A stretch of 64,000 nt of DNA from Pedobacter sp. (lineage in GTDB: Bacteria; Bacteroidota; Bacteroidia; Sphingobacteriales; Sphingobacteriaceae), in NCBI RefSeq assembly GCF_045627485.1, contig NZ_JAZQNU010000050.1, positions 1,031-65,030 on the forward strand, written 5' to 3'. Both the position numbers and the translations under genes were made by a program. The notes below the pieces were generated by a model. It searched no databases, was not told the origin of the DNA, and saw only the letters and a list, made by a program, of their open reading frames with translations. Below, piece after piece: positions 1,043 through 31,072 of this stretch. Numbering within the stretch: the stretch's first letter is position 1; each line of letters begins with the position of its first letter.

Positions 1043-2137
1043 TTAAACATTGAAACGGAAGTGCATAATATCACCATCCTCAACTACATATGTTTTACCT
1101 TCTACGGCAAGTTTTCCAGCTTCTTTACAAGCATTTTCTGAACCAAGGGTAATAAAGTCATTGTATTTAATTACTTCTGCACGAATAAAACCTTTTTCGA
1201 AGTCTGTATGGATCACACCGGCAGCTTGTGGAGCGGTAAATCCTTTAGTAATGGTCCATGCTCTTACTTCTTGTACTCCCGCTGTAAAATAGGTGTATAA
1301 GTCTAACAGGCGGTATGCTGCAACGATTAGTTTGTTAACTCCCGATTCGGTTAAACCTAAGTCGGCAAGAAACTCCTGACGTTCTTCGTAACTATCCAGT
1401 TCGGCAATTTCCGATTCTATTTTAGCTGAGATTACAAGTACTTCTGCACCTTCGTCTTTTACAGCTTCCTTAACTTTGTCAACATATGCATTTCCATTGA
1501 TCACAGAATTTTCATCCACGTTGCACACATACATTACAGGTTTTTGAGTTAATAAACCCAGATCCTCAATATAGTCGAAATCATCATCATTCAACGCTGC
1601 CGAACGTACGGAATTTCCGCCTTCCAGGTGTGCTTTTACGATGCTCAGGATGTCGAAAGTTCTTTTGGCATCCTTATCGGTTTTAGCCATTTTTTCCACT
1701 TTCTGGATGCGTTTGCTCACCGTATCCAAATCTTTTAGCTGAAGTTCTGTATCGATAATTTCTTTATCCCTGATTGGGTCTACAGAACCATCAACGTGGA
1801 TTACATTTCCGTCGTCAAAGCAACGCAATACGTGAATAATGGCGTTAGTGGCACGGATGTTTCCTAAAAACTGATTACCTAAACCTTCTCCTTTGGATGC
1901 ACCTTTTACCAATCCGGCGATGTCTACGATTTCTATAGTGTTTGGCACCACCCGGTTTGGTTTAACCAACTCTGCAAGTTTGGTTAGCCTTTCGTCTGGA
2001 ACAGTAATAACGCCAATATTAGGTTCGATGGTGCAAAAGGGGAAATTTGCTGCCTGCGCCTTTGCGTTAGATAAACAGTTAAACAAGGTAGATTTTCCAA
2101 CATTAGGTAAACCCACTATACCACATTGTAATGCCAT
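1043..2137 (-). CDS. ychF: Redox-regulated ATPase YchF (Obg family)
   Basis: GIVGLPNVGKSTLFN, NFPFCTIEPN, DIAGLVKGAS, C-terminal TGS domain. Confidence 0.98.
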   Translation of the reverse strand: MALQCGIVGLPNVGKSTLFNCLSNAKAQAANFPFCTIEPNIGVITVPDERLTKLAELVKPNRVVPNTIEIVDIAGLVKGASKGEGLGNQFLGNIRATNAIIHVLRCFDDGNVIHVDGSVDPIRDKEIIDTELQLKDLDTVSKRIQKVEKMAKTDKDAKRTFDILSIVKAHLEGGNSVRSAALNDDDFDYIEDLGLLTQKPVMYVCNVDENSVINGNAYVDKVKEAVKDEGAEVLVISAKIESEIAELDSYEERQEFLADLGLTESGVNKLIVAAYRLLDLYTYFTAGVQEVRAWTITKGFTAPQAAGVIHTDFEKGFIRAEVIKYNDFITLGSENACKEAGKLAVEGKTYVVEDGDIMHFRFNV

Positions 2138-2163
2138 GAATGTATTTGTGTTAATTTTGGCGC

Positions 2164-2171
2164 AAAGGTAT
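2164..2171 (-). promoter_or_regulatory. Bacteroidota housekeeping -7 promoter element for ychF
   Basis: TACCTTTG on the minus strand matches TAnnTTTG, 26 nt upstream of the start. Confidence 0.7.
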
Positions 2172-2225
2172 CAAAAAAATTAAAACCCGGGTGTAATAAA
2201 CTTGCAGGGGGTTTAAAAATTCTTT

Positions 2226-2756
2226 ATGTTTAAAGACACAAAAATAGATCAAACGTCATTACCAATGGACAATTTAGAAGAAACAAAAGGGGAGCTTTCA
2301 GAAGAACTTCCTCAACAGCCTTTAATCATTACCGAAGACATCAGGAGTTACCTGTACGATATGGCTAAATGGACAAAATTCTTGTCAATTGTAGGATTCG
2401 TCGTTGCTGCACTTGTGGCGATGATGGGCTTTGGAGCCGGGGCTTTTGTGTCAGTACTGGCTAAAATGAGTCCGGGAAACCCACTTGCAGCCATGGGAAC
2501 GGGTTTTCTAACTGTATACTTTTTAGTAATTGCCCTATTGTATTTTTATCCAAGCTTATTGTTGTTTAAACATGCAAACGCTGCAAATAAAGCAACACTT
2601 TATGGCGACCAGGAAAGCCTGGCAGAGTCCATGAACAACCTGAAATCTTTTTTTAAGTTTTGGGGTATCCTAATGATTGTATTAATTTCATTCTATATGC
2701 TCACCCTTATACTCGTTATAGTAAGTGGTCTGGGTGCTGCAGTGGGTACTGCTTAA
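2226..2756 (+). CDS. DUF5362-like membrane protein
   Basis: Three hydrophobic segments; AKWTKFLSIVGF and LKSFFKFWGI patterns resemble DUF5362. Confidence 0.7.
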   Translation: MFKDTKIDQTSLPMDNLEETKGELSEELPQQPLIITEDIRSYLYDMAKWTKFLSIVGFVVAALVAMMGFGAGAFVSVLAKMSPGNPLAAMGTGFLTVYFLVIALLYFYPSLLLFKHANAANKATLYGDQESLAESMNNLKSFFKFWGILMIVLISFYMLTLILVIVSGLGAAVGTA

Positions 2757-2830: not shown

Positions 2831-3526
2831 TTAGACAAATACTGGTGTTTTGTGCTCAATGGTATATTTAAAGTTCTTAATTTCTTTCCGCAACAGGTGT
2901 TCAAAGTAGGGATTGATCATTTTGGACAGTCCCACGCCAATACCGCCGATAATTGGGCGGTAGGAGAGCACAATTTTTAATAGCGTCCCTCGTCCATCAA
3001 GAGTTTCCTCAAATTCCACTCGCCCTACATGTTGTACCAGCGGCGCATTGATGGAACGCCAGCCAATTAAGCGTCCTGGTTCGTCTTTCACAATTTCTGC
3101 ATCCCATTTAATAGCGAAAACATTGCCCAAAACAGCAGTTTTCCAGGTAGACAAATGTTCATCCACCACTTCTACGTTCAGCATGTTGTGTAGGGTGCCA
3201 GGCAGGTTTTTTAAGTTCCGCCAGTAAGCATATACCTCAGCCGGAGGAAGGTCTATCTCAAAGTCACCCCTGATGTTAACGGCCTGTGGTCTTTTCGCGT
3301 CAATCCCCAGGTAATCGTAAAATATACATTTGCCGGTCACCCCGCGGTAGGCCATGTAAGCACCATAAAGAAAGCGGCCTTTTAATGGATTTTTTAACGA
3401 CGATCCAATTAAAATGCCACCTAATAGCATAGATGCCAAACGTTCGTTAAGGCCCATATTTTCATAATGTTGCCTCTCGATGGCATAATTTCCAGACCGG
3501 GGCTTAAAGTGATTTTCAGTCTTCAT
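2831..3526 (-). CDS. DUF2892 + SRPBCC (cyclase/dehydrase-like) domain protein
   Basis: N-terminal ERLAS..RGVTGKCxxYxxLG (DUF2892-like); C-terminal VYAYWRNLKNLP..WDAEIV..IGWRS (SRPBCC). Confidence 0.85.
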   Translation of the reverse strand: MKTENHFKPRSGNYAIERQHYENMGLNERLASMLLGGILIGSSLKNPLKGRFLYGAYMAYRGVTGKCIFYDYLGIDAKRPQAVNIRGDFEIDLPPAEVYAYWRNLKNLPGTLHNMLNVEVVDEHLSTWKTAVLGNVFAIKWDAEIVKDEPGRLIGWRSINAPLVQHVGRVEFEETLDGRGTLLKIVLSYRPIIGGIGVGLSKMINPYFEHLLRKEIKNFKYTIEHKTPVFV

Positions 3527-3770
3527 AAGTTTGCTTTTTAATTACAGCGCCCAGCGCGTCAATTTGTTGAGGTGAGAGTGTTCCCCAGATTTGTTCCCAT
3601 TGACCTTTTTCGTTTGGCCTCAGTTGAGTAACTGTTTTTCCACCCTGCTGGCAGCTGTAATAGGTTACTCCATCACTAGTCTCTTCAGGTCTTACCTGGA
3701 AAGGCTGCGTGCGACCGTCAAAGTCAACTTCGATCTTAAATTCGGGGTTTTGTGATTCAAATTCTGTCAT
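3516..3770 (-). CDS. Small hypothetical protein coupled to the SRPBCC gene
   Basis: 84-aa ORF overlapping the next start by 11 nt, preceded by the AAC-N16-TGTT element. Confidence 0.75.
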   Translation of the reverse strand: MTEFESQNPEFKIEVDFDGRTQPFQVRPEETSDGVTYYSCQQGGKTVTQLRPNEKGQWEQIWGTLSPQQIDALGAVIKKQTYED

Positions 3771-3794
3771 CTTTAGGGGGTTGTGTTAGATTAA

Positions 3795-3817
3795 AACAGA
3801 TAAAGCCACCGAGTGTT
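3795..3817 (-). promoter_or_regulatory. AAC-N16-TGTT element (putative ECF-sigma promoter)
   Basis: Minus strand AAAC-actcggtggctttatc-TGTTTTAA, 24 nt upstream of ORF 3770. Confidence 0.55.
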
Positions 3818-3960
3818 TTAAGGAGGCCGAAAAAGATCCGATTAGCGGCGATTTCTGCAGCCTGTAGCAATGCACTTAAAACATCAATAATCAATACGTT
3901 ATAAATATTTTAAACTAGGTATAAATACCAAAAAAAATGGCGTATCTTTGCGCAAATTTT

Positions 3961-26253: not shown

Positions 26254-27438
26254 ATGGAACAAGGAAGGCTTTTAAACGCAATTATAGATAATGCTATTGA
26301 TGGCATTCTTACAATTGATAATAAAGGCGTCATAGAAAGTATCAATCCAGCGGCTTTAAAGCTTTTTGGCTACAAACAGGAGGAAGTGCTAGGGAGGAAC
26401 ATTAGTGTATTAATGCCAGAACCCGATAAAAGTGCACACGATGGTTACCTGCATCGTTATCAGCGTACAGGCGAAAAACGCATTATCGGGATTGGCCGTG
26501 AAGTTCGTGGACTGCGAAAGGACGGTTCTACTTTTCCTTTTCGTTTGGCCGTTAGTGAAGTCCAATACTTAGATCGAATTATTTACACCGGATTTATTCA
26601 CGATTTATCTAAAGAAAAGGAAGCAGAGGAACGTTTACGCGAATATGCCGCAGAACTGGAAGAACTTGTGGAGGAAAGGACCCGTTCGTTAAAGAAAACG
26701 GTTGTTGCCCTAAAGGAAGCGAAAGAGGAAGTGAGTTTATCGCTTGTTAAGGAAAAGGAACTTAACCAAATGAAAAGCCGTTTTGTGTCTATGGCTTCGC
26801 ACGAATTCCGCACACCACTCAGTTCCGTGCAGCTTTCTGCATCTCTCATTGAAAAATATGCCCAACCTTTTCAGAATCCCAACATCAGTAAACATGTTGG
26901 AAAAATTAAAAATGCTGTGGGCAACCTAACCACTATCCTAAACGACTTCCTGTCATTGGAGCGCCTGGAAGCAGGCAACGTAGAACCTACCTTCAGCACC
27001 TTTGATGTGGTTAAGTTTTCGGAGGAGGTTACCGAAGAAATGCAGATGATTGCTAAGCAGGATCAAAATATCATCTACCAGCATACCGGTATTCAAAGTA
27101 TGGTAGAGCTGGATCAGAATTTATTAAGAAACTGCATGATCAACCTGATTAGTAATGCCATTAAATATTCAGGAGAAAATACTTTTATAGAATTTAATAC
27201 TGAGATTACTGACAGCGAGTATTTTTTTATGATCAAAGACAATGGCATTGGCATTCCCCTAACAGACCAGGTACATTTGTTTGAACCATTTTTCAGGGCC
27301 AATAATACAGGTAGCATTCCAGGTACAGGCCTTGGTTTAAACATTGTTTTGCGTTATGCCACCCTGATGAACGGTAAAGTTCATTTTGAAAGCACCATTA
27401 ATAAAGGAACAACATTTATACTTTCTTTTCCAAAATAG
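26254..27438 (+). CDS. FixL-type heme-PAS sensor histidine kinase
   Basis: LMPEPDKSAHDGYLHRY..IIGIGREVRGLRKDGSTFP closely follows the FixL heme-PAS pattern, with the proximal His and distal Arg positions kept. H-box ASHEFRTPL; HATPase boxes. -7 element TATATTTG upstream. Confidence 0.9.
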   Translation: MEQGRLLNAIIDNAIDGILTIDNKGVIESINPAALKLFGYKQEEVLGRNISVLMPEPDKSAHDGYLHRYQRTGEKRIIGIGREVRGLRKDGSTFPFRLAVSEVQYLDRIIYTGFIHDLSKEKEAEERLREYAAELEELVEERTRSLKKTVVALKEAKEEVSLSLVKEKELNQMKSRFVSMASHEFRTPLSSVQLSASLIEKYAQPFQNPNISKHVGKIKNAVGNLTTILNDFLSLERLEAGNVEPTFSTFDVVKFSEEVTEEMQMIAKQDQNIIYQHTGIQSMVELDQNLLRNCMINLISNAIKYSGENTFIEFNTEITDSEYFFMIKDNGIGIPLTDQVHLFEPFFRANNTGSIPGTGLGLNIVLRYATLMNGKVHFESTINKGTTFILSFPK

Positions 27439-28494
27439 ATGAGTAAAATAAGGATACTGATAATAGAAGACAATAACGACATCAGGGAAAGCACAGCTGA
27501 GATTTTGATGCTTGCAGACTATGAAGTGATGGAAGCTAAAAATGGTAAGATTGGTGTAGAACTGGCGACAACTCATCTACCGGACGTTATTTTATGTGAT
27601 ATCATGATGCCCGAACTGGATGGGTACGGGGTGTTGTACCTGCTTAATAAAAACCCGCAGACGTCCTCCATCCCTTTTATTTTCCTGACGGCAAAAGCTG
27701 AACGCATCGATATGCGTAAGGGTATGGAAATGGGTGCAGATGATTACCTCACCAAACCTTTTGACGATGTTGAATTACTCAACGCCATAGAAAGTCGCCT
27801 TGCTAAGAAAAACAAGCAGAAAGCATTTTACAGTAAATCACTTGAACAGTTAAGCGGACTGATTGGAACCACTTCTGGTTTACATGCCCTTCAGAAATTA
27901 GTGGCGGAGCGTAAAGTGCGTCACATTAAAAAGAAACAGGTCATTTATTATGAGGGTGATAGTGTAACCGGTATATTCCTGGTGATCCAGGGCAAAGTGA
28001 AAACTGTGAAACTCAATGAAGATGGCAGACAGTTGATGACGGGAATTTACGGAAATGAGGAATACTTTGGAATCACCAGCCTATTACTTCAAGAACCTTA
28101 TGCAGAAACCGCGGAGGCGCTGGAAGATACCACCATTTGTTTATTACCCAAAGACATGATGGAAGACCTGTTAAACCAGTTTCCTGACCTTGGGCGTAAA
28201 TTTATTAAAATACTTTCCAACCAACTGCTCGATAAGGAAGAACAACTGATGCAGCTGGCTTATCACTCGGTAAGAAAACGTTTATCCGAAGTTTTGATTC
28301 GCCTTGCAAAACAGGAAAAATCAGGGAATCCTGTGTTAAAGGTGTCGCGCGATAACCTGGCGGCATTGGCGGGCATGGCTACAGAAACGGTAAGCCGTAT
28401 TTTAAGCGACTTTAAAGAGGAGAGCATTATTGAAAGAAAAGGAAGCCAGATTCATATTATAGACTTTCATAGGTTGGAGCATATGAAAAACTGA
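27439..28494 (+). CDS. Response regulator: receiver + cNMP-binding + Crp/Fnr HTH
   Basis: IIEDN..LCDIMMP..FLTAK receiver; cNMP barrel; VSRDNLAALAGMATETVSR Fnr-type helix. Abuts the kinase stop codon. Confidence 0.93.
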   Translation: MSKIRILIIEDNNDIRESTAEILMLADYEVMEAKNGKIGVELATTHLPDVILCDIMMPELDGYGVLYLLNKNPQTSSIPFIFLTAKAERIDMRKGMEMGADDYLTKPFDDVELLNAIESRLAKKNKQKAFYSKSLEQLSGLIGTTSGLHALQKLVAERKVRHIKKKQVIYYEGDSVTGIFLVIQGKVKTVKLNEDGRQLMTGIYGNEEYFGITSLLLQEPYAETAEALEDTTICLLPKDMMEDLLNQFPDLGRKFIKILSNQLLDKEEQLMQLAYHSVRKRLSEVLIRLAKQEKSGNPVLKVSRDNLAALAGMATETVSRILSDFKEESIIERKGSQIHIIDFHRLEHMKN

Positions 28495-28503
28495 CCAGCA
28501 TCA
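28492..28503. promoter_or_regulatory. Fnr-type box TGAC-CAGC-ATCA
   Basis: Overlaps the regulator stop codon; upstream of -7 element TATTTTTG (28549-28556) and the ORF 28576-hemN operon. Confidence 0.65.
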
Positions 28504-28575
28504 TATTTCAAACTGATGTAACGCATTCCCTCGTTGTTGCGGTCTCTTTATTTTTGATCTATTAAAAGATCAAGT

Positions 28576-29028
28576 ATGAGAGTAGTAGCCTATAGTATAA
28601 AATCTTCTGAAAAAGAGCCACTGGCCATCGCCAACCGAAAGAAGCATGAAATTACTTTAATTTCTAATGCATTAAGCGAGGACACAGCCATTTACGCGCA
28701 AGGAAAAGAAGCCGTTATTGTTTATGAAGGCGATGTTGTAAATGCCAGTGTGATTAATATCCTCGCTGATCTTGGCATTAAATACATCACAACCAGATCA
28801 AATTCAACTGCCCATATTGATGAACGTGCTGCAGAAAGCAGGCAGATCAAACTGGCCTATGTGCATTCTGACAGTATCGACCAGCTTTCCAACGAAACCT
28901 TATTAAACGTGTTAGCAGCCGAAACAATTAGTAACCTTGACAAATGGCAAGGTAAACGCTGTTTAGGATCTGCATGTATCTGTTCTGCAACGTGTCGCGG
29001 ACCTTTAAAAACAGAACATGAACACTAA
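28576..29028 (+). CDS. D-lactate-dehydrogenase-like substrate-binding domain only (no NAD domain), Cys-rich tail
   Basis: N-terminus follows the LdhA pattern (VAYS.K..EK, A.G.EAV.V..GD, ILADLGIKYITTRS..HID..AA) and then jumps to the C-terminal helix AETISNL; tail CLGSACICSATC. Confidence 0.75.
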   Translation: MRVVAYSIKSSEKEPLAIANRKKHEITLISNALSEDTAIYAQGKEAVIVYEGDVVNASVINILADLGIKYITTRSNSTAHIDERAAESRQIKLAYVHSDSIDQLSNETLLNVLAAETISNLDKWQGKRCLGSACICSATCRGPLKTEHEH

Positions 29029-30382
29029 AGCATTAATACAAAAATATAATGTAGCGGCACCACGCTACACCAGTTATCCTACCGTTCCGTTCTGGGATCA
29101 GGCTACATTTAATCAAGAAAACTGGGCCAAGGCTGTTGTACAAACCTTTAATGACAGTAATACCAGTGATGGTATCAGTGTATATATTCACCTTCCTTTT
29201 TGTGAAAGTTTGTGTACCTATTGTGGATGCAACACCCGGATTACCGTAAATCATAAAGTCGAAGAACCTTATATCGCTACAGTACTGAAAGAATGGTCAT
29301 ATTATGTGGCATTATTTAAAGACAGGCCTCAGATCAAAGAATTGCACCTTGGCGGTGGTACACCAACATTTTTCAGTGCAGAAAACTTAAAGCAGTTAAT
29401 TGCCGGAATTTTCGCGTTAGCAGACCGTCATCCTGATGCTGAATTTAGCTTTGAGGGTCATCCGGGCAATACCCGGAAAGAGCACCTTGCTACTTTATTT
29501 GATTTAGGATTCAAACGCCTGAGTCTGGGTATACAGGATTTTGACCCAAGGGTACAATTGATTATCAATCGTATTCAAAGTTACGAGGAAGTGCAACTGG
29601 CTACCCAGCAAGCACGGGATGCCGGTTATACCTCTGTGAATTATGATTTGATTTATGGTTTGCCTTTGCAAACCCTGGAAGGTTTGCAGGAAACCATAAA
29701 TTACGTTTTGCAACTTAAACCAGACCGTATTGCTTATTACAGCTATGCACATGTGCCGTGGATAAAACCGGGTCAACGACGTTATACCGAAAAAGACCTT
29801 CCATCGTCGGCTTTAAAGCAACAACTTTATGAGGTAGGGCGGGAGATGCTGAAAGCAGGTGGTTATACCGAGGTGGGCATGGATCATTTTACCCTGACCA
29901 GCGATACCTTGTATGCTGCTGCAGAAGATGGCGGTTTACACCGTAACTTTATGGGCTACACCCACCAGTACAGTCGTTTGATGATCGGTTTGGGGGTTTC
30001 ATCGATAAGTGATACCTGGACCGGTTTTGCGCAAAATGTTAAAAAAGTTGAAGACTACACAGCCTTGGTAGAAGCCGGGGAAATTCCAGTGTTTAAAGGC
30101 CATATTTTGGATGAAGCCGATGTGTTGTTACGCCAGCATATATTGAATATCATGTGTAAAGGTGAAACATCATGGGCGCTGAAAACGGAGCAACATCCTG
30201 ACTTTTATGAAGGACTGGAGCGAATGGAATTATTGGCTCTGGATGGATTGGTAACCCTAAATGATCAGCACTTAAAGGTTACGGAGGAAGGAAAGCGTTT
30301 TTTAAGAAATATCTGCATGGCTCTTGATGCCCGTTTATGGCGAAACCAGCCTACAACACCATTATTTAGTATGGCCGACTAA
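29018..30382 (+). CDS. hemN: Oxygen-independent coproporphyrinogen III oxidase
   Basis: PRYTSYPT, HLPFCESLCTYCGC radical-SAM motif, RNFMGYT. Confidence 0.97.
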   Translation: MNTKALIQKYNVAAPRYTSYPTVPFWDQATFNQENWAKAVVQTFNDSNTSDGISVYIHLPFCESLCTYCGCNTRITVNHKVEEPYIATVLKEWSYYVALFKDRPQIKELHLGGGTPTFFSAENLKQLIAGIFALADRHPDAEFSFEGHPGNTRKEHLATLFDLGFKRLSLGIQDFDPRVQLIINRIQSYEEVQLATQQARDAGYTSVNYDLIYGLPLQTLEGLQETINYVLQLKPDRIAYYSYAHVPWIKPGQRRYTEKDLPSSALKQQLYEVGREMLKAGGYTEVGMDHFTLTSDTLYAAAEDGGLHRNFMGYTHQYSRLMIGLGVSSISDTWTGFAQNVKKVEDYTALVEAGEIPVFKGHILDEADVLLRQHILNIMCKGETSWALKTEQHPDFYEGLERMELLALDGLVTLNDQHLKVTEEGKRFLRNICMALDARLWRNQPTTPLFSMAD

Positions 30383-30388
30383 TTGTAG

Positions 30389-31072
30389 TTATTTACACTC
30401 GGCCACACTAGTGGTTTGTTTAGCCGGACTCACAAAAGGAATATCTAAATTCATTCCCCTTAATAAAAACCAGCAACCCAGAAAAAGCAACATAAAGGGA
30501 ATTACCTTGTTGATGCGCTGGCGTACCAAGTTACCTGTAAAACCCATGCCAATGGTGGCTATTAACATGAGGGGAGTGGTACCTACACCAAACCAGAACA
30601 TATAACTAACAGCAAGGGACATGTTTCCTGTGTTTAATGCACCGGCCAGCGCCAGGTAAACAAAGCCACAAGGCAATAAGCCGTTAATCATACCTATGAT
30701 GAGGTGATTTGCTTTATGTTTTAAGGCATAACCAAACAGTTTGTTAAAGGGTTTAAGCAGGATACTACTGCTGTTGGCGATTGTTAATTTAAAAATTCTG
30801 GAACAAGCTGCGGCAATAATTAGGATACCTGTAAAAATACTGATTCCCTGTTGCAGGCCAGATAACCAGATTTGGCGGCCTATTAATCCAATTACTATGC
30901 CTAATACACAATAGGAAAGGATTCGGCCGGCTTGGTACAATACCTTGTCGAGCACGACATAACCTATGCCAGATTTTAAAGAAGGTACAGCAAATGCCAA
31001 AGGGCCACACATACCAATGCAATGTACGCTACCCAACAGGCCAATCATGAAAGCCAGGTATTGATCGCTCAT
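30389..31072 (-). CDS. DsbD_2 / TauE-SafE-like membrane protein of cbb3 assembly clusters
   Basis: GSVHCIGMCGP, GMINGLLPCGFVY; last gene of the cco cluster. Confidence 0.9.
   Translation of the reverse strand: MSDQYLAFMIGLLGSVHCIGMCGPLAFAVPSLKSGIGYVVLDKVLYQAGRILSYCVLGIVIGLIGRQIWLSGLQQGISIFTGILIIAAACSRIFKLTIANSSSILLKPFNKLFGYALKHKANHLIIGMINGLLPCGFVYLALAGALNTGNMSLAVSYMFWFGVGTTPLMLIATIGMGFTGNLVRQRINKVIPFMLLFLGCWFLLRGMNLDIPFVSPAKQTTSVAECK

Follow-up and report, generated by a model that had tools for sequence, protein, structure and literature searches.

What does a gene encode when it resembles D-lactate dehydrogenase (D-LDH, or LdhA) over its first hundred codons, carries nothing of the nicotinamide adenine dinucleotide (NAD)-binding domain of that enzyme and then runs directly into hemN? 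Such a gene lies in the 64,000-nucleotide stretch of Pedobacter sp. DNA presented above (the window), where it forms an open reading frame (ORF), here called X, at positions 28576-29028. It is a real gene that encodes only the LdhA-type substrate-binding domain, made up of the N-terminal ~97 residues and the last helix of the enzyme, followed by a 12-residue tail with four cysteines. We state with high confidence that X is, by identity and by evolutionary origin, an LdhA remnant from which the NAD domain was lost. The explanation as a whole, in which this conserved remnant would also have an accessory role in low-oxygen physiology, is given a probability of about 0.5.

An LdhA substrate-binding domain without its NAD domain

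X and its parts, all on the + strand, are as follows.

28576..29028, + strand: ORF X, whole; 150 amino acids plus the stop codon (29026-29028); supported by the ORF call, homologs and substitution rates.
28576..28866, + strand: residues 1-97, flavodoxin-like core of the substrate-binding (catalytic) domain of LdhA; supported by Pfam, the PDB search, the structural model and Foldseek.
28867..28905, + strand: residues 98-110, the junction left by the deletion and the fastest-evolving part; from alignments, comparison of junctions and nonsynonymous change by segment.
28906..28953, + strand: residues 111-126, equivalent of the last LdhA helix, which belongs to the substrate domain; within modelled helix 106-126, aligned with residues 301-317 of the full-length form and matched weakly by 5z20.
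28960..28995, + strand: residues 129-140, Cys motif CLGSACICSATC (C-x4-C-x-C-x3-C); conserved, with little amino-acid change, unique in the genome and carried by many full-length orthologs.

Residues 13-100 match the Pfam family PF00389, the catalytic domain of 2-hydroxyacid dehydrogenases (E=1.6e-6; 28.3 bits against a cut-off of 24.6), and the same Pfam search of the X protein gives no match to PF02826, the NAD-binding domain. NCBIfam matches are to D-LDH only and are confined to the first ~100 residues. Likewise, the PDB sequences retrieved with phmmer are matched by the N-terminal ~100 residues of D-LDHs only, apart from a weak second stretch in which residues 110-125 of X pair with residues 320-335, the last helix, of the Pseudomonas aeruginosa enzyme (5z20). 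An AlphaFold2 (AF2) model built on 26 homologs, with a mean predicted local distance difference test score (pLDDT) of 79, has a five-stranded alpha/beta domain whose strands and helices extend to residue 94, a further helix at residues 106-126 and an unstructured tail (pLDDT < 50). The model superposes on the Escherichia coli and P. aeruginosa D-LDHs with a root-mean-square deviation of 1.0-1.1 Å over 97 residues at 30-31% identity (Foldseek E=2.7e-10).

When X is aligned with full-length orthologs from the same locus (see below), ~190 residues are absent. The absent part holds GxGxxG as well as the catalytic Arg, Glu and His (Arg235, Glu264 and His296 in the numbering of the L. bulgaricus enzyme), for which the short form has no counterpart, and beyond it QLSNETLLNVLAAETISNLDKW of X pairs with FLTKEALQQIADQTIKNLDLW of the full-length enzyme. 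The first-pass annotation, made from the letters of the DNA alone, had described X in these terms: an LdhA substrate-binding domain up to about residue 97, the last-helix equivalent directly after it, a Rossmann domain of roughly 190 residues missing together with its catalytic residues, and hence a precise excision yielding a non-catalytic protein. All of this stands. The Pfam, PDB and Foldseek matches agree on the domain; the modelled helix, the full-length alignment and the 5z20 stretch agree on what follows it. The single-chain AF2 model that it called for recovers the LdhA substrate-domain fold with a disordered tail, and the excision is clean and in frame, neither a truncation nor a frameshifted remnant.

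D-LDH binds its substrate chiefly through Arg235 and His296. The N-terminal domain contributes the RSxGxDHID loop (Gly77, Asp79) and a Tyr-Ser-Pro stretch. At these positions the two forms of the protein differ: conservation falls from 0.90 in full-length to 0.32 in short forms for Gly77, from 0.97 to 0.30 for Asp79 and from 0.93-0.97 to 0.24-0.43 for Tyr99/Ser100/Pro101, so that the substrate-contact columns overall are at 90% or more in the former and at 24-43% in the latter. The window's own X has S77, A79 and D99. Arg74, His80 and Asp82 of the same loop are largely retained in short forms. X thus shows one of the four LdhA enzyme features tested, the PF00389 fold, and fails the NAD domain, the catalytic triad and the N-domain substrate contacts. 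Because it has no cofactor site, no catalytic Arg/Glu/His and drifted residues at the remaining substrate contacts, X is not a dehydrogenase.

X is therefore best compared with LdhA of E. coli (5Z1Z/3WX0) and P. aeruginosa (5Z20/6ABJ) as a homolog in the substrate-binding domain and last helix alone. Unlike these enzymes it has neither an NAD domain with its GxGxxG nor the catalytic residues, and its substrate loop has drifted; it carries in addition the C-x4-C-x-C-x3-C tail, which is absent from the LdhAs of other Bacteroidota families, and it is coupled in an operon to hemN.

Full-length orthologs and the repeated loss of the NAD domain

The origin of X is apparent from its relatives. A profile of the short protein was searched against 151 genomes of the same family; 80 loci were fetched and the window's own makes 81. 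The search returned short frames as well as many of 330-360 amino acids, and these longer frames match the profile twice, first over positions 1-115 and then over ~103-146, which correspond to the last helix and the Cys tail. Nearly all of the 80 fetched loci share the order PAS kinase, REC-Crp regulator (a receiver domain, REC, fused to a Crp/Fnr-type protein), X and hemN, and the X slot is occupied by a full-length form (317-351 amino acids) in 30 and by a short form (107-161 amino acids) in 50.

The full-length forms retain GxGxxG and the catalytic Arg, Glu and His (in SRG, VYE.E and PHQ), and many of those from other genera of the Sphingobacteriaceae end in the C-x4-C-x-C-x3-C tail. One full-length ortholog aligns over residues 1-316 with LdhA of P. 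aeruginosa (E=1e-82) and of E. coli (E=4.5e-78), and its Cys tail starts just beyond the end of these two structures. Outside the family, a sample of 400 Bacteroidota genomes was compared. The best LdhA matches there stop short of the tail, and 18 loci fetched with ~1.5 kb of flank contain no Cys motif and, within that flank, no hemN, kinase or Crp gene. Since full-length orthologs in the same slot already bear the tail, the tail is ancestral to the hemN-linked subfamily of LdhA and an innovation of the Sphingobacteriaceae. The short form is the derived state, namely the full-length, Cys-tailed, hemN-linked LdhA gene minus its NAD domain. The first-pass annotation had regarded the tail as added to X. 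Ordinary LdhA does lack it, but the tail is older than the deletion.

The full-length Cys-tailed proteins (for example that of locus L039, with 343 amino acids, or P0121) share with X the locus, the upstream FNR-type box, the downstream hemN, the subfamily residues and the tail, at 55-67% identity over the common parts. Unlike X, they retain the NAD domain of ~190 residues with every catalytic residue in place, and they are presumably active D-LDHs. The subfamily residues are K13, E14, K22, T27, I29, N31 and K44; short and full-length members of the hemN-linked clade both conserve them, and the LdhAs of other Bacteroidota do not. A non-catalytic surface peculiar to the subfamily and older than the deletions would fit this pattern.

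The NAD domain was lost more than once. In a maximum-likelihood tree computed on the 113 columns common to short and full-length forms, the window's X groups inside the hemN-linked, Cys-tailed clade. The short/full label requires seven changes on this tree, at least four of them forced by strongly supported branches, and a single-change history occurs in no bootstrap tree. A tree with all short forms together is rejected by the approximately unbiased (AU) test (delta lnL 56.6, p=0.0235). Individual placements agree with this: the short form of genome G078 is sister to the full-length form of G055 from the same genus (support 99/84), that of G149 clusters with full-length G107, and two short forms are nested among the full-length forms of genus g27.

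The lineages are also unlike in their junctions. The linker that joins the ANVP strand to the conserved helix measures 5, 7, 11-13, 15 or 17-23 residues, as against 210-214 in full-length forms. The window's lineage keeps the LTxEAL segment (as LSNETLL). Many other lineages (loci L020, L038, L060, L082, L083 and others) are joined at SPxxIAE/xT (the stroke marks the join), which lies between two IAE motifs, YSPxxIAEH at the start of the first cross-over helix and LQxIAxxT in the last helix. This hints at a deletion mediated by micro-homology between the IAE motifs. One metagenomic representative, P0127, keeps a stub of the NAD domain. The tree changes, the AU test and the lineage-specific junctions all point the same way: the NAD domain was deleted in frame several independent times in the Sphingobacteriaceae, with endpoints at the two inter-domain cross-over helices.

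A related case in the window's own genome deserves mention. The closest full-length LdhA paralog there (C88:10521-11489; L004, ORF 1489..2469) has 326 amino acids, matches the full-length profile at E=6.6e-134 and lacks the Cys tail. In place of the TPHQAF of the hemN-linked full-length orthologs it has TPNLAF, so that the catalytic His is replaced by Asn, and it may be a second pseudo-dehydrogenase.

Purifying selection, the Cys tail and the hemN operon

If X were a pseudogene, its frame would be expected to decay, and this possibility was considered and rejected. The large protein collection searched holds 324 short-form homologs with an open reading frame (137-164 amino acids among the 120 listed), and whole genera carry the short form. 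Those that bear species names are from Pedobacter species. In pairwise Nei-Gojobori estimates, the ratio of nonsynonymous to synonymous change (dN/dS) is 0.02-0.18 for seven close short-short pairs (dS 0.07-0.6) and 0.09-0.12 for full-length pairs. The window's X, compared with two metagenomic relatives of identical synteny (86% and 78% identical), gives 0.059 and 0.179; hemN in the same two comparisons gives 0.059 and 0.064. The short form is therefore kept by strong purifying selection. Within X the constraint is uneven: dN is 0-0.03 in the Cys segment (with dS 0.7-2.3), 0.06-0.11 in the N domain and 0.19-0.37 in the junction linker, the fastest part. The rate of evolution of short forms is nonetheless about double that of their full-length sisters (branches of 0.32 vs 0.14 and 0.42 vs 0.28), and a few degenerate copies exist, in G140, in G081 and as a second copy in G071.

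The first-pass annotation had asked for such rates and for length-matched homologs with their hemN synteny, and had reckoned with decay if relatives carried a full-length LdhA at this locus and the short form were restricted to this strain. A full-length LdhA does occupy the locus in other genera. The short form is not strain-restricted, however; it has 324 length-matched homologs, the order kinase, REC-Crp, X, hemN is shared by nearly all of the 80 fetched loci, and its low dN/dS speaks against decay.

In an alignment of 26 Pedobacter homologs, 51 columns are invariant and each of the four cysteines is present in at least 90% of the sequences. A regular-expression search finds C-x4-C-x-C-x3-C in X alone among the 4204 ORFs of at least 80 amino acids of its own genome. 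Loss of the cysteines had been named beforehand as a point that would count against a function of the tail; they are conserved in X's own lineage but have been lost in some other short lineages, g29 and g4 having none and g32 at most three. The Cys tail has no match among PDB sequences even at E up to 10. It bears some likeness to SoxR, whose [2Fe-2S] site is C-x2-C-x-C-x5-C near the C-terminus. Both have four cysteines within a 12-residue stretch that begins with C-[IL]-G in a flexible C-terminal segment. The spacing differs, with cysteines at 1, 6, 8 and 12 in X and at 1, 4, 6 and 12 in SoxR, as does the protein context. A SoxR-type site was accordingly rejected, given this spacing and the lack of a PDB match.

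The C-terminus of X (...EHEH) shares bases with the start of hemN (ATGAACAC, 29002-29028), and a C-terminal H-x-H is frequent in Pedobacter homologs. The last nine codons of X have a dS of 0.17-0.22 in its own comparisons, against ~1 elsewhere, in line with the overlap with hemN. Given this low dS, the H-x-H may reflect dual coding rather than metal binding.

Another observation on the family concerns P0154, a protein of 4421 amino acids in which 19 separate stretches match X residues ~30-78 (E=6.9e-18, representative library). It looks like either a giant repeat protein made from a piece of the X domain or a compositional artefact.

The surroundings of X are those of a low-oxygen respiration neighbourhood.

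26254..27438, + strand: sensor histidine kinase whose PAS domain is FixL-like; it opens the conserved block; NCBIfam sens_FixL_Rhizob matches the PAS region at E=8e-49, under the model's cut-off.
27439..28494, + strand: receiver domain fused to a Crp/Fnr-type DNA-binding regulator (REC-Crp); Pfam Response_reg, cNMP_binding and HTH_Crp_2 on an ortholog, and Fnr/FixK models on residues 149-349.
28492..28503, no strand assigned: FNR/FixK-type box TGACCAGCATCA, 84 nt upstream of the X start; recognised by sequence and conserved across loci.
28549..28556, + strand: TATTTTTG, putative -7 promoter element, recognised by sequence ~20 nt upstream of the X start codon.
29018..30382, + strand: hemN, oxygen-independent coproporphyrinogen III oxidase; TIGR00538 equivalog at 416.5 bits against a cut-off of 324.95.
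30389..31072, - strand: DsbD_2-family membrane protein of 227 amino acids with HCIGMCGP, between hemN and FixH/CcoG; no NCBIfam match.

The putative -7 element fits TAnnTTTG, the Bacteroidetes consensus. On the opposite strand downstream of hemN, the DsbD_2-like membrane protein is accompanied by FixH, CcoG, CcoP and CcoNO. Much of this arrangement is shared among the related loci. The PAS kinase precedes X in most of the 80, REC-Crp lies directly upstream of X in ~75 of 81, and a TGAY-N4-RTCA box precedes X in 62 of 81, at 69-130 nt (mostly 80-90 nt) and alike for both forms.

The start of hemN overlaps the end of X by 11 nt (ATGAACACTAA), the stop codon of X falling 8 nt past the hemN ATG. 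Among the short loci, hemN directly follows X in 45 of 51 (the 50 fetched and the window's own), and in most loci the hemN ATG lies -11 to +22 nt from the X stop. The coupling of X to hemN suggested by the first reading of the DNA is thus borne out in the overlap itself and in the stops and starts that abut across loci; the link is real at the operon level, though not obligatory. Because of the conserved FNR-type box and the abutting or overlapping stop and start, X and hemN are very probably expressed as one FNR-type, low-oxygen-induced transcript with coupled translation.

Possible roles of the remnant and what they would mean

What, then, would selection be keeping? We propose that in the full-length enzyme the substrate domain and tail performed a further, non-catalytic task even before the deletions, which would explain why the NAD half was repeatedly discarded while the rest was conserved. 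The four cysteines would be the ligands of a metal centre, for which an Fe-S cluster is the likeliest candidate. The first-pass annotation had already suggested a metal- or Fe-S-binding accessory factor, and the idea is plausible. X would be made together with HemN at low oxygen and would assist the low-oxygen regulon as a small redox or metal accessory; its most plausible client is HemN, since the HemN reaction needs an electron partner. Indeed, HemN/CgdH must pass the remaining electron to an acceptor (PMC10114771). To see in X a redox accessory of the FNR-box operon that works with HemN through a Cys-ligated metal or Fe-S centre is a tentative assignment drawn from sequence. A shade more tentative still is the idea that the substrate domain and four-Cys tail form an oxygen- or redox-responsive Fe-S or metal module that would either partner HemN, as electron acceptor or donor, or, as an analogue of FixT evolved by convergence, exert feedback on the FixL-like kinase.

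Several observations weigh against this proposal. The Cys tail is simply unstructured in the AF2 model. Close pairs in the Cys-poor lineages g29 and g32 still have dN/dS of 0.07-0.14, so the N domain matters without the full Cys motif. The ancestors are ordinary-looking fermentative LdhAs, and their place in the operon may originally have reflected nothing more than co-regulation. hemN is present in 48 of 50 short-form genomes and in 22 of 30 full-length-form genomes (Fisher p=0.005), an excess that is suggestive at most, because p rises to 0.09 with complete genomes only and the samples are phylogenetically non-independent. About 18 genomes of the family have hemN and no X, and HemN in general must therefore be independent of X. 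Conversely, G149 (L020, X at 3483-3920 on the - strand) keeps an intact, Cys-tailed short form while hemN is absent from its whole genome. There, hemN has been deleted between X and the ccoG-fixH genes, and X abuts the convergent DsbD_2/FixH/CcoG genes.

The chief alternative is suggested by FixT of Caulobacter crescentus, an Fe-S-binding receiver protein that inhibits FixL autophosphorylation and whose cluster controls its degradation by Lon (PMC7078487). By analogy, X would be a flavodoxin-like domain with an oxygen-labile Fe-S tail that is induced by the PAS kinase/REC-Crp pair and feeds back on the kinase or the regulator. Both proteins are small, single alpha/beta domains with four cysteines, and FixT belongs to a FixL-type low-oxygen regulon that also controls hemN (PMC7078487). 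X sits directly downstream of the kinase-regulator pair in ~75 of 81 loci, stays beside it where hemN has been lost (G149 and G140, and full-length forms in g3, g19 and g34) and is preceded by an FNR-type box, which makes it a probable target of the same system; the PAS domain of the kinase also resembles that of FixL. The two proteins are not homologous, however, one being a receiver and the other an LdhA substrate domain, and Fe-S binding and kinase inhibition were demonstrated for FixT, whereas for X both would be hypothetical. X is not homologous to receiver domains (its Pfam and NCBIfam matches are confined to 2-Hacid_dh and D-LDH), its ancestor was a complete LdhA enzyme, and adjacency to a regulator is equally expected of an ordinary target gene. 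We regard this alternative as unlikely.

Less likely again is that X has no function of its own and that its frame stays open only since hemN translation, or promoter and spacing needs, require ribosomes to pass through it. As X stop and hemN start overlap or abut in most loci, only in-frame deletions would preserve hemN expression, and both the twofold acceleration of short forms and the badly degenerate copies (G140, the second copy in G071, G081) would fit such a relic. Yet it would have to account for dN/dS of 0.02-0.18 in seven pairs and 0.059 for the window's X, for a Cys segment almost without amino-acid change, for 51 residues invariant among 26 Pedobacter homologs and for the intact form of G149, which has no hemN to couple to. 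The first-pass annotation had also offered a lactate or pyruvate sensor, in which the isolated substrate domain would still bind D-lactate, pyruvate or another 2-oxo acid and report to a partner. The fold is intact and Arg74, His80 and Asp82 are largely kept, but the main substrate holders, Arg235 and His296, belong to the deleted part and the N-domain contacts have relaxed (S77, A79 and D99 in the window's X), which weakens that suggestion and leaves it very improbable. Finally, X might pair with a separate NAD domain, or poison or regulate a full-length LdhA paralog, which the C88 paralog in its own genome, like those in several other short-form genomes, would make conceivable. D-LDH dimers form through the NAD domains, though, and the short form has none. 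A PF02826/PF00389 search of the own genome finds no stand-alone NAD domain, only five complete 2-hydroxyacid dehydrogenases and otherwise unrelated Rossmann proteins, and a split enzyme was rejected on these grounds. The nearest genome, G125, has the short form and, at the threshold used, no LdhA paralog. Such pairing or interference is the least probable of the roles considered.

Enzyme-family members that are conserved without their core catalytic parts have been described before as pseudoenzymes or as cases of domain atrophy. The 2-hydroxyacid dehydrogenase case of Prakash and Bateman (2015) is a partial NAD domain in PurK (PMC4432964). X differs in that a whole nested domain has been excised, repeatedly, and the discontinuous outer domain is intact. 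None of the Pfam and NCBIfam models and none of the literature found describes the short family, the Cys-tailed hemN-linked LdhA or the coupling of LdhA to hemN. X thus represents a recurrently generated, conserved pseudo-dehydrogenase whose family is newly recognised here and is mis-annotated as "lactate dehydrogenase". Databases name the ~150-residue homologs "lactate dehydrogenase", "D-lactate dehydrogenase" or "Rossmann-fold NAD(P)-binding domain-containing protein". Hundreds of such entries carry the name of D-LDH without an NAD domain, and metabolic reconstructions that credit D-LDH from this gene are wrong.

The family offers a natural case in which a nested domain was excised several times from a two-domain enzyme and the discontinuous outer domain survived as a conserved protein, which is useful for understanding the origin of pseudoenzymes and of moonlighting functions. 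If the redox-module proposal is true, the repeated loss of the NAD domain is a natural experiment, in which a second function, and not lactate fermentation, was what selection kept. This points to a function tied to the low-oxygen regulon of the Sphingobacteriaceae, with its cbb3 oxidase and HemN, and X may prove a handle on the electron partners of HemN or a new feedback element of the FixL-like system.

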